Assembly: GCF_002854065.1 (NCBI RefSeq)
Contig: NZ_CP024147.1
Direction: 5' to 3' (one strand)
Origin: Escherichia coli
GTDB taxonomy: Bacteria > Pseudomonadota > Gammaproteobacteria > Enterobacterales > Enterobacteriaceae
Length of the DNA stretch: 64,000 bases
The position numbers were made by a program, and so were the translations under genes. The notes beneath the pieces were generated by a model that searched no databases, had not been told where the DNA came from, and saw nothing but the letters and a program-made list of their open reading frames with translations. Numbering within the stretch: position 1 is the first letter of the stretch; each line of letters opens with the position of its first letter. This document shows, in pieces, positions 42,585 to 63,822 of this stretch.

Positions 42585-42701
42585 GAGTACCAAACATACC
42601 CCTGACATCTGACTACAATAATTAGTTTTAGTGGGTATCAGTCGTGGTGCCGCAATATCTCTGTTCCCGATTGGGATAATTAGAGTTTGTCGTCAGAAAA
42701 T

Positions 42702-49192: not shown

Positions 49193-51904
<2,712 letters not shown>

Positions 51905-51964
51905 GTTTGTATAGCGTTTTTATGTACACTCTTTATACTGTATATAAAATCGCACTACAGGCTC

Positions 51965-52249
51965 ATGAATATGAAACCGGAAAGCAAAGAAGCGCCAATC
52001 AATATCAGAGCGAAAGCCTCACAGCGTGACCTGATTGATATGGCAGCGAATCTGGTCGCAAAATCGCGCACTGATTTTATGCTGGATGCCGCATGCCGTG
52101 AAGCGCAAGACATCTTATTAGATCAACGACTATTCATCCTTGATGACGAGCAATACGATGCGTTTCTCGCTGCCCTGGACGCCCCCATCACTGCTGAGCG
52201 TCAGGCCAAAATTAACGCGTTGATGAATCGTAAATCGCCATGGGAATAA
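51965..52249 (+). CDS. DUF1778 (TacA/AtaR-like) ribbon-helix-helix antitoxin, 94 aa
   Basis: INIRAKASQRDLIDMAANLVAKSRTDFMLDAACREAQDILLDQRLF...DEQYDAFLAALDAP resembles the DUF1778 antitoxin family; stop overlaps the toxin start (ATGGGAATAA). Confidence 0.75.
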   Translation: MNMKPESKEAPINIRAKASQRDLIDMAANLVAKSRTDFMLDAACREAQDILLDQRLFILDDEQYDAFLAALDAPITAERQAKINALMNRKSPWE

Positions 52250-52725
52250 CGGCTCCTACTCCCCTAACGTCTGAACATAATCTGGCTGACTTTTGCTGTT
52301 CCGATCACGGGATGAATGAATGGCTAAAAAAGAAAGCATTAAAAAATCACAGCTCCGGTCTGTCTCGTGTTTACGTTATCTGTATTGCCAATACCCGCCA
52401 GGTAATCGGCTATTACTGCCTTTCTACAGGCAGTATTCAACGTAATTTGGCCCCTGGAGCCATGCGACGTAATGCTCCCGAATCGTTGCCTGTTGTCGTA
52501 TTAGGCAGACTGGCAATTGATCAAGCCTGAGCAGGTAAAGGGTTGGGCGTCGCATTGTTGAAAGATGCAGTCTATCGCACAATGTCCATAGCTCAACAGG
52601 TAGGGGTTCGTGCGCTCATTGTTCATGCCTTAGACGATTCAGTACGCAATTTCTATCTGAAGTATGCCTTTGTACCTTCACCATTCCAGTCACTTACCTT
52701 ACTGTATCCCATTACTCTGGAGTAA
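52240..52725 (+). pseudogene. GNAT-family acetyltransferase toxin (TacT/AtaT-like), 162 codons, broken by in-frame TGA at 52528..52530
   Basis: ORFs 52240..52530 and 52543..52725 share a frame; the stop falls in LGRLAIDQA*AGKGLGVALL, immediately before the GNAT acetyl-CoA-binding G-x-G motif. Confidence 0.75.
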
Positions 52726-52774
52726 TTTACCTCTACCGGATAGTCACACTGATGAGTCTGATCCGGGAGGGATT

Positions 52775-53806
<1,032 letters not shown>

Positions 53807-60684: not shown

Positions 60685-61287
60685 TTACCGCAAAGCCCAC
60701 GCCATCATACCCAACGTAACAAAACTCAGGCACGTTCCCCACTCACTCCACTTCCGTATCTGGCTTCTATTTTTGCTACGCCACTGGCAATAATATCCCA
60801 ACGCAAAACCAAGCTGTGCGCTTATTGGACCGATAAAATCCGTCCACGGCTGAGGCCAAAATGGCGAAAAATTCAGGGGTAGCCAGACAACAAGCAGAAA
60901 GAAATTGCGGATACTTTCCAGCAACGCAATTTTCGCTGGCGCGATGTAAAAAATGATATTCCAGAGGATCAACCATAAATAGACCGGTGCGAATACCAAC
61001 CAACAATGGAGCCTGCTTTTCAATTCAGATTGAGTTCTACGAGTAAATTGCCAACCAACGCAACACATTACACAGAAGAAAAGCGCATATTCAGCCGATA
61101 ACCAAAGTTGTAATTGCAGAAGTGAAATACGCCTGATCATGAGCGGGATTGAGAACAGCATTTCCCCCAGAAAACTCAGCGTGATAATACAAGCAGCCAG
61201 CGCAACCACCATCGGCCACACCAACAACGGCACAATAACAAAGCCGAGAAATAACGGATAAATATAAAGTCTGATTATATTCATCAT
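60685..61287 (-). CDS. Uncharacterised multi-pass membrane protein (200 aa), paralogous to the N-terminal domain of the 505-aa protein upstream
   Basis: ORF 200 aa, mostly hydrophobic; start ATG overlaps upstream stop (TAATG); shared segments with 62305..63822 N-terminus. Confidence 0.75.
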   Translation of the reverse strand: MMNIIRLYIYPLFLGFVIVPLLVWPMVVALAACIITLSFLGEMLFSIPLMIRRISLLQLQLWLSAEYALFFCVMCCVGWQFTRRTQSELKSRLHCWLVFAPVYLWLILWNIIFYIAPAKIALLESIRNFFLLVVWLPLNFSPFWPQPWTDFIGPISAQLGFALGYYCQWRSKNRSQIRKWSEWGTCLSFVTLGMMAWALR

Positions 61288-62279
61288 TATTGTCCTGATG
61301 ATTCGGGGGATGCTTCATACAGCAGCACATACCCCACATCCTCTACCAACTGTTGCCCCTGCTGACTTATAAACCAGTCAACAAATTTCTGCGTTTCCGG
61401 CGTGGGATTTTCACGCGTCACCATATAGGCATCCACAATGTATGGATAAGTGCCGTTGCGGATATTTTCCTCGGTAGGCGCAACGCCATTTATAGCCAAA
61501 AGTTTAATCTGCTTGCGCATTTTGAGCATATTGTCATTCATACGAGTGACGTAATAGTGGAAGGTGTACCCAATGGAAGATGGCGTGTTTTGATAGTCGG
61601 CAACTTCAGTAATTAAACCGCCCATAAGATCAATCACAGTAGATTTTTTAGCTGGCAGCATTGGGGTGTCTTGCATAACCAATCCCTTCATAATCGTTTG
61701 GCTTCCAGAATCTTCAGGGCGCTGCCAGACTTTTATATGTTCGTCACTACCACCTACTTTATTCCAGCGGCTAGTTTTGCTGCTAAAAATATCTTTAACC
61801 TGGTGCTCAGAGAGAGAATTTACCGGGTTATTAATATCAACGATAAAGACAAAGGCTTCGCGGGCGAAAGCGGTATATTTCAGTTTAACACCCGCTTCTT
61901 CTGCACGTTTTTTCTGTCCTTCCGACGGTTGTGCAACAAAAATAACCGTCGCGGAACCTTTAATCAGACTATCGTAGGCTTCAGCTGTTCGGGTTTGCTG
62001 CAAACCATACGCCTGCCAGGCCAGCGAGGTTCGATCCTTATCTTTTGGCTCGGGTACTAATTTATAATACGCGGAGGCATACAGCGGGTATAAGGCTGTA
62101 GCGCCGTACACTCTCGGCCATCTTGACCAATCATCGCTGTAACGTAATGCAGGTTGCCCCCGCAGAGACGTCAGTCCATGGCTCTCTTCTTCCCTGACGC
62201 TGTTATAGTACCCTTCCCGGTCGACACATCCCGCCAGTAACGCCGTGCCTAATAGTAAAACACCGGTGAATTTATTCAT
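61287..62279 (-). CDS. Uncharacterised lipoprotein with PstS-like (PBP_like_2) phosphate-binding-protein-family domain, about 330 aa; start at MNKFTGVLLLGTALLAGC
   Basis: Lipobox LLAGC; motifs QRPEDSGSQT, IGYTFHYY, APTEENIRNG resemble PstS DGSGTSF / GAIGYVEY / SPTEENF; ORF-track start at 62342 would overlap the upstream gene. Confidence 0.8.
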   Translation of the reverse strand: MNKFTGVLLLGTALLAGCVDREGYYNSVREEESHGLTSLRGQPALRYSDDWSRWPRVYGATALYPLYASAYYKLVPEPKDKDRTSLAWQAYGLQQTRTAEAYDSLIKGSATVIFVAQPSEGQKKRAEEAGVKLKYTAFAREAFVFIVDINNPVNSLSEHQVKDIFSSKTSRWNKVGGSDEHIKVWQRPEDSGSQTIMKGLVMQDTPMLPAKKSTVIDLMGGLITEVADYQNTPSSIGYTFHYYVTRMNDNMLKMRKQIKLLAINGVAPTEENIRNGTYPYIVDAYMVTRENPTPETQKFVDWFISQQGQQLVEDVGYVLLYEASPESSGQ

Positions 62280-62304
62280 CTCGCTGATTCCTTTCTCTCG
62301 AGCG

Positions 62305-63822
62305 TTATTCCATTGTTGGATACAGCGGCACATATCCCACATCTTCTACCAGACTCTGCCCCTGCGGCGTTAAAAACCATTCGACCAGTTTTTGTGTTTC
62401 TGACGTTGTATTTTCCCTCGTTACCATAAAGGCATCGACGATATAGGGATATTTGCCGTTGCGAATATTTTCCGCAGTCGGTGTAATACCGTTAATCGCT
62501 AGCAGTTTTATATTTTTATCAGCATTCATTTGCGTCGCGTAATAGCGGAAGGTATAGCCTATTGCGTTGTTTGTATTACGGTATTCGGCAACGACTTTAA
62601 TCATTCCCTCCATCACGCTTGCCACTTCCATTTCCTGCGGCGAGATCATGCGGACATTTTTCATGACCTGTGATTGCATCACTGTCTGGCTGCCAGAGTC
62701 TTCCGGGCGCTGCCAGGTCTGGATCTCCTGATCGTTACCGCCAACAGTACGCCAGTTGGTAATTGCACCACTGAAAATGTCACGCACCTGTTGTTCAGTC
62801 AGGGAATTAACCGGATTATCCGCATTGACGATGAAAACGAATGCTTCACGGGCAAAGGGGGTGTACAGCAAAGTGACACCAGATTCCTTTGCACGTTTTT
62901 TTTGCCCACCGGAAGGTTGCGCCACGAAAATAATATCAGCATCGCCCTTAACGATTTTGTTATATGCTTCTGGCGTACGAGAGTTTTCCAGATAATCCCA
63001 AACGTGAAAATCCTCTGGTATTACACTTAATGCATAAAATGCAGAAGCATAAATTGGGTACGCAGCCGTGGCGCCATCGATTCGCGGCCAGTTTTGCCTA
63101 AACTGAATTTGCGGTTTGCCACGCAGCGGCGTCAGTCGATTATTGAGTTTATCGGGTTGCCAGGCCCAGATATCAATATTTTCGCGTACACCGACACCAG
63201 GATTGAGCTGTTTATATAAATAACCCTGATAACCAGCGACAAAACCAAGCATGAGAAGGATAAACAGGAGGGAATTACGGCAACGTAGCCCGGATGTACC
63301 GGTTAAAGGATGTCTGGTTGGCCGGCCGTACCCCAGCGAAAAACTGATATGCGCGCCAACGGGTATAATGACTATCCACCAGTACTCACCTCCGACTACT
63401 GAGACTAACAAAACGCCCAGCCAGGGGAGCATAAGATCAGCCAACCAACCCGATCCCATCTGGTGAAATTGATAATCTGCCAGATGCAGCGCGATTATCC
63501 AGCCAACCAGGATTAATAAAGCGGGTACTAAAAAAAGACATTGTCGCCAGACGGCTATTTCTCTTTTTTCTGGTGCACTATCGCCTGCCCATACTCGCCC
63601 CGAGAAAAATAGCATTAATGCGCCCAGCGCCAGCATAAAAATGTTGAGCAGAAGGTAAATTGTTGGCGTGATAAGGATATTACAAACTTCAATAATACCG
63701 GCAAGTCCGACACCCAGCATAGCAACAACCGCCGCCAAAAATTGCGTCAGTATGGGGATGCCGAAAAAAGTCATTACCAGCGAGGACAAAATCCATTTTC
63801 TGTTTTGCATTATTCTTTCCAT
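62305..63822 (-). CDS. Uncharacterised fusion protein (505 aa): N-terminal multi-pass membrane domain plus C-terminal PstS-like periplasmic binding domain
   Basis: First about 215 aa hydrophobic; C-terminal domain paralogous to the downstream lipoprotein (QRPEDSGSQT, IGYTFRYY, TPTAENIRNG); -10-like TATAAT 18 nt upstream. Confidence 0.8.
   Translation of the reverse strand: MERIMQNRKWILSSLVMTFFGIPILTQFLAAVVAMLGVGLAGIIEVCNILITPTIYLLLNIFMLALGALMLFFSGRVWAGDSAPEKREIAVWRQCLFLVPALLILVGWIIALHLADYQFHQMGSGWLADLMLPWLGVLLVSVVGGEYWWIVIIPVGAHISFSLGYGRPTRHPLTGTSGLRCRNSLLFILLMLGFVAGYQGYLYKQLNPGVGVRENIDIWAWQPDKLNNRLTPLRGKPQIQFRQNWPRIDGATAAYPIYASAFYALSVIPEDFHVWDYLENSRTPEAYNKIVKGDADIIFVAQPSGGQKKRAKESGVTLLYTPFAREAFVFIVNADNPVNSLTEQQVRDIFSGAITNWRTVGGNDQEIQTWQRPEDSGSQTVMQSQVMKNVRMISPQEMEVASVMEGMIKVVAEYRNTNNAIGYTFRYYATQMNADKNIKLLAINGITPTAENIRNGKYPYIVDAFMVTRENTTSETQKLVEWFLTPQGQSLVEDVGYVPLYPTME

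Follow-up and report, generated by a model that had tools for sequence, protein, structure and literature searches.

The locus analysed here corresponds to ataRT2 of Escherichia coli O157:H7 Sakai (ECs4261-ECs4262), which encodes the antitoxin AtaR2 and the toxin AtaT2 (PMC7470980). Intact AtaT2 is toxic and is neutralised by AtaR2, its Y139A mutant is non-toxic, and the two proteins assemble into a complex with two toxin and four antitoxin subunits (PMC7470980). The intact toxin acetylates Gly-tRNAGly, exclusively so in vivo, and ribosomes stall at Gly codons (PMC7470980; PMC9177977). For the O157:H7 allele the literature shows that AtaR2, a ribbon-helix-helix/DUF1778 protein, binds and blocks the GNAT toxin AtaT2, and that free AtaT2 draws on acetyl-CoA to acetylate the glycine on Gly-tRNAGly, with ribosome stalling as the outcome. 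AtaRT2 of O157:H7 is already known in detail, and the pseudogene described below is already flagged in public annotation.

The stretch of E. coli DNA analysed here, referred to as the window, is 64,000 nucleotides long and carries two small genes between malT and rtcA. Judged by sequence identity, these are the characterised AtaR2/AtaT2 pair and not a new module. In a search of solved structures, the toxin with its internal stop replaced matched chain B of PDB 7F37 over residues 1-161 (E=4e-105), with W97 as the sole difference, and the antitoxin was 100% identical to chain C of the same entry. The next-best solved structures were Salmonella TacT/TacA (~1e-43; 152 bits for TacT compared with 352 for 7F37), followed by AtaT and KacT at 1e-18 to 1e-20; ItaT was absent from the matches to the repaired toxin in this search. 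Three cloning primers published for the ataR2 and ataT2 genes of O157:H7 Sakai (PMC7470980) match the window exactly, AtaR2-F at 51971-51993, AtaT2-F at 52240-52260 and AtaT2-R at 52696-52725. A full-text literature search for '7F37' gave no match, so the link between this entry and the name AtaT2 rests on the sequence identity and the primer matches. The primers AtaT2-Y139A-F and -R, given in Supplementary Table S1 of PMC7470980, have no match to ataT2 anywhere in the window; they appear to come from a different gene, possibly through an error in that table.

Family assignments point the same way. The antitoxin matches the TacA1/DUF1778 family in Pfam (PF08681, E=1.2e-19) and the repaired toxin two GNAT families (PF13508 and PF00583, both at ~1e-4), with no NCBIfam family found for either protein. 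The initial annotation, made from the letters of the sequence, had proposed a DUF1778 antitoxin paired with a GNAT toxin; the family matches, together with those to the TacT, AtaT and KacT structures, bear out this module type, but the specific, characterised AtaRT2 of O157:H7 had not been recognised.

The antitoxin gene ataR2 is intact, runs from 51971 to 52249 on the + strand and encodes a 92-residue protein of the DUF1778/TacA family (WP_000801912.1) that O157:H7 also encodes; its assignment draws on the identity to 7F37 chain C, the PF08681 match and the primer match. The 94-residue frame described at the outset is present (51965-52249), but the start is placed at the ATG at 51971, giving MKPESKE..., a choice supported by a Shine-Dalgarno-like AGG, by the start annotated in RefSeq, by the crystallised PDB construct and by the published primers. 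All positions given in the initial annotation hold. The ataT2 pseudogene, encoding a GNAT aminoacyl-tRNA acetyltransferase toxin, follows on the same strand at 52240..52725, as defined by 7F37 chain B, the primers and RefSeq. Its frame comprises 161 sense codons and a TAA stop at 52723-52725, and is interrupted at codon 97. The reading frames, with the toxin frame starting at 52240, confirm that the two genes overlap, by 10 nt, via ATGGGAATAA. To the left, malT (49199..51904, + strand) ends with a stop codon at 51902-51904, 4 bp to the left of the module-specific segment, and to the right the convergent rtcA (52775..53803, - strand, 342 residues) has its stop codon at 52775-52777.

The defect in ataT2 is a TGA at 52528..52530 on the + strand; base-by-base comparison with O157:H7 shows that it stands in place of TGG (Trp97), the G at 52530 having become A. 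Over the 486 bases of the toxin gene the O157:H7 genome differs at only one other position, 52338, where AAA in the window replaces AAG without changing the amino acid. The TGA lies in the GNAT frame 52240-52725, as originally reported, within LGRLAIDQA*AGKGLG and two residues before the GKGLG acetyl-CoA loop (residues 99-103), and both 7F37 and O157:H7 identify Trp as the wild-type residue that it replaces. Position 97 itself is variable among 33 homologues, being Y, W or F, so it is the truncation, not the absence of a crucial residue, that argues for inactivation. In contrast, G103 of the GKGLG loop and Tyr139, both downstream of the stop, are invariant in the same 33 homologues. The predicted product of 96 residues would lack motif A, the acetyl-CoA loop, as well as the catalytic Tyr139, and AtaT2 of the TGA allele is therefore almost certainly inactive; RefSeq likewise annotates a pseudogene with an 'internal stop', in keeping with the inactivation first proposed.

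It is highly probable, we conclude, that the locus is a chromosomal type II AtaRT2 operon, an accessory segment of some 0.9 kb, in which this W97 stop has left a non-functional toxin fragment beside an intact orphan antitoxin. A single G-to-A transition in the lineage of the strain would have converted codon 97 from TGG to TGA, so that translation would end after residue 96, before the loop that binds the acetyl-CoA pyrophosphate and before Tyr139. What is left over would be a recently dead toxin gene next to an antitoxin gene that is intact and probably still autoregulated.

The spread of the TGA allele was followed with a 37-nt probe around the stop, counting exact and one-mismatch occurrences in 377 complete genomes. 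Two genomes matched exactly and the remaining 375 of the 377 did so with one mismatch; those of the latter that were read directly have TGG, or Trp, at codon 97. The two exact matches are CUWW06, from wastewater in Thailand, and 100416, from human stool in Gambia, both annotated in RefSeq with an 'internal stop'. A longer, 61-nt probe found one genome only, missing 100416, which carries another SNP at 52549. Neither genome is the same as the window: CUWW06 differs from it by SNPs at 42586 and 55525 and by an IS1 insertion that the window does not contain, and 100416 shows 10 differences over 24 kb, one of them V104I, which lies beyond the stop.

The same TGA is present in four independent ENA/Logan contigs from metagenome or SRA data (L020-L023), which do not differ from the window across the module. 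These come from a cluster of 96-residue proteins (P0041) indexed in 149 blocks, from which ten contigs were examined; six of the ten end at codon 96 and are uninformative about the stop, and only L020-L023 were counted. The six are independent Logan contigs (L014-L019), each breaking off exactly at ataT2 codon 96 or 97. Such ends may reflect a break in the assembly graph at a site that is polymorphic within samples containing both TGA and TGG strains, or an artefact of gene calling.

We conclude that the TGA allele is real and is inherited in a small but geographically spread lineage. Downstream of the stop only one further change is seen, the V104I of 100416, which argues that the stop arose recently; the loss of the toxin likewise looks recent.

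The orphan state of AtaR2 raises the question of whether it has been kept for a function of its own, either as a transcription factor or in neutralising related GNAT toxins carried on plasmids (anti-addiction). We consider this reading, which is compatible with a dead toxin, unlikely. AtaR2 and its leader match those of O157:H7 at 100%, as retention would predict, and enterobacterial plasmids commonly carry related GNAT/DUF1778 pairs whose toxins are 60-73% identical, 4,241 plasmid records giving a match. Perfect conservation is, however, also expected after a recent loss of the toxin, and neither a second GNAT toxin nor a second GNAT toxin-antitoxin pair was found within the 64-kb window.

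There is little likelihood that the toxin is merely attenuated, with low-level readthrough of the UGA by tRNA-Trp restoring Trp97 and the resulting trace of AtaT2 being held in check by the intact antitoxin. Of the E. coli stop codons UGA is the most prone to leak, and near-cognate reading by tRNA-Trp would put the original tryptophan back. As the change is precisely TGG to TGA, misreading by this tRNA would regenerate the wild-type protein, and the frame beyond the stop is still open and almost unchanged. That frame would be equally unchanged after a recent mutation, however. The base following the stop is G (GCC-TGA-GCA), which is not known to be among the leaky UGA contexts, and no stimulatory structure is seen 3' of the stop (fold z=+0.65); given this base and the lack of such a structure, readthrough is unlikely to matter. 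A more speculative proposal, of a leaky 'dimmer' allele giving AtaT2 at roughly a hundredth to a thousandth of its usual level, or of an AtaR2 acting as an anti-addiction factor against plasmid GNAT toxins, also seems very doubtful. Were the dimmer part of it true, the ratio would shift strongly to antitoxin and a conditional trace of toxin would stay.

Programmed recoding of the UGA, for example by selenocysteine insertion, would account for an in-frame UGA within an otherwise open frame and is exceedingly improbable. The 63 nt after the UGA fold at -11.5 kcal/mol (z=+0.65), no better than shuffled sequence, and Rfam gave no match at E<=1 across 51700-53000. The UGA is not conserved among relatives, being absent by one base from 375 of the 377 genomes, and recoding is contradicted by this and by the lack of a recoding hairpin. 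Equally improbable is a sequencing or assembly error in a toxin that is really intact, which the single-base difference and the rarity of the TGA (two of 377 complete genomes) might suggest and which the initial annotation had named as grounds for its own refutation; it is effectively refuted by the TGA in the window, in two genomes from different continents with other SNPs or an IS1, and in four contigs, all independently assembled.

Upstream of ataR2, a leader at 51902..51965 (+ strand) forms a 27-nt imperfect inverted repeat, with arms at 51902-51928 and 51939-51965 that are 78% complementary. Its predicted fold, at -27.5 kcal/mol (z=-5.3), is much more stable than those of shuffled sequence. 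The short palindromes noted in the leader initially, TGTACA (51923-51928) and ATACTGTAT, are present, but as parts of this larger repeat. Blocks of the repeat are partly conserved upstream of Pectobacterium and Raoultella homologues, and their conservation in these different genomic contexts indicates that the repeat belongs to the module and not to malT. A consensus scan places a sigma-70-like promoter match, TGTACA-16 nt-TAAAAT, inside the repeat at 51923..51950 (+ strand, 9 of 12 matches), a scan that is weak alone, the region yielding 3 sites where 1.8 are expected. The 27-nt inverted repeat is a reasonable candidate for the AtaR2 operator, and the autoregulatory role first proposed for its palindromes is plausible.

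The two genes form part of a module-specific segment, 51909..52797, defined by alignments to K-12 and to four other empty-site haplotypes. Across these five haplotypes the segment takes the place of about 49 bp of the empty junction, among them the final three rtcA codons and a REP-like hairpin. Of 5,426 complete E. coli genomes, 394 carry the module, as a single chromosomal copy in each and between malT and rtcA in every case listed; the carriers are mostly O157:H7, O55:H7 or O145, plus scattered others. About 5,002 genomes have the empty junction of K-12 type, in several divergent haplotypes, with malT followed directly by rtcA in K-12 itself.

The core cassette (51909-52735) has 46% G+C compared with 54% for malT and 60% for rtcA. 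Its closest relatives outside E. coli, in Pectobacterium (78%), Raoultella (66%) and, as a fragment, Yersinia pestis, do not adjoin malT or rtcA, and the full-length identity of plasmid-borne relatives does not exceed ~73%. The presence in a minority of genomes, the lower G+C and the unrelated contexts of the relatives uphold the initial description of the module as strain-specific cargo, and acquisition of the segment is the more parsimonious direction of change. No direct repeats or target duplication were found at the boundaries in the alignments to empty-site haplotypes, and no mobility gene was seen at the segment. The module has diverged from O157:H7 by 0.34%, compared with 1.36% for the pooled flanks (Fisher p=0.007), but it is not less diverged than malT alone (p=0.32), and its lower divergence is a weak sign of recent transfer.

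The surroundings of the segment are themselves variable. The empty malT-rtcA junction is very polymorphic, being 80-90% identical to K-12 over 159 bp in 2,333 genomes (L003:2742-2900; window 51905-51908 and 52736-52800), and rtcA is the most diverged gene between the lineage of the window and O157:H7, at 3.0% compared with 0.7% for malT. Further along, the stretch from glpD to glgP (window 60686-63814) holds two genes for PstS-family phosphate-binding proteins and one hypothetical gene, which are not known to be intact in K-12, and it may be another strain-variable region. One PstS-family gene between glpD and glgP is interrupted in CUWW06 by IS1B (L005:22818-23581; about 62818 in the window), and the same gene is intact in the window and in 100416.

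Replacement of the junction alters the end of the neighbouring gene. RtcA ends in ...VMITKLTD in the window and in ...VSIE in K-12; its last seven codons (52778-52798, MITKLTD) lie inside the module-specific segment and replace three K-12 codons (SIE), so that alignment demonstrates the difference at the rtcA 3' end that had been suspected from the outset. Between the convergent ataT2 and rtcA, folding and alignment define a hairpin at 52730..52770, with a predicted energy of -16.6 kcal/mol on the + strand (z=-0.95) and -17.2 kcal/mol on the - strand (z=-2.4). Its arms, CCGGAT/ATCCGG, resemble those of the REP-like hairpin of the empty site. From these folds, tentatively, the hairpin is likely to be a shared terminator of ataT2 and rtcA.

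In Pectobacterium brasiliense (L008:3085-3262) an AT-rich insert of some 165-180 bp interrupts the ataT2 homologue. It is bounded by terminal inverted repeats, GGGCGGGATTCCACTTTG ... CAAAGTGAG..CGCCCTG, with GAGAAATAC possibly duplicated; Rfam gave no match for the insert, which looks like a miniature transposable element. Y. pestis NCTC5923 (L009:4001-4153) retains only a fragment of an AtaT2-like toxin, covering residues 27-77 at 71% identity, with no antitoxin match found within 4 kb of it. A frameshifted relative is represented by protein P0043, and decay seems common in this family of toxins.

The correct label for the locus is ataR2 with an ataT2 pseudogene (W97*), as the module is neither novel nor uncharacterised. 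As an ordinary pseudogene it matters little beyond correct annotation, and readthrough of the UGA or an independent role for the orphan antitoxin would, if true, add modest interest only. The W97* locus nevertheless offers a clean natural case of toxin-first decay that leaves an orphan antitoxin, and the TGA is a handy marker SNP for a small E. coli lineage known from Thailand, Gambia and several metagenomes.

Compared with the described systems, the locus is distant from AtaR-AtaT of O157:H7 (PDB 6AJM, 6GTP), KacA-KacT of Klebsiella (PDB 5XUN, 5ZGN) and ItaRT, which belong to the same family and share aminoacyl-tRNA acetylation, but have different or broader target preferences. AtaT and KacT align with the repaired toxin at E values of only ~1e-18 to 1e-20, and AtaT2 is 29% identical to AtaT (PMC7470980). 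TacA-TacT of Salmonella Typhimurium (PDB 5FVJ, 7F36, 7AK8) has the same GNAT/DUF1778 architecture, TacT aligning with residues 3-155 of the repaired toxin (E ~1e-43), and TacT also targets Gly-tRNAGly in vivo (PMC9177977). It is nonetheless a more distant orthologue, with Phe at the equivalent of Trp97, at another genomic location, and it is intact. As in TacAT-type pairs, a DUF1778/TacA antitoxin lies upstream and a coupled GNAT toxin homologue downstream, but the intact toxin frame with its acetyl-CoA loop and catalytic tyrosine is missing. Since the TGA precedes both GKGLG and Y139, the locus is a member of this group by descent, a toxin-null allele and not a working pair. With AtaRT2 of O157:H7 Sakai, finally, it shares the locus, the malT-rtcA site, an identical antitoxin and an identical leader, and differs in having TGA and not TGG at codon 97, where the toxin reading frame of the window strain now ends after residue 96.
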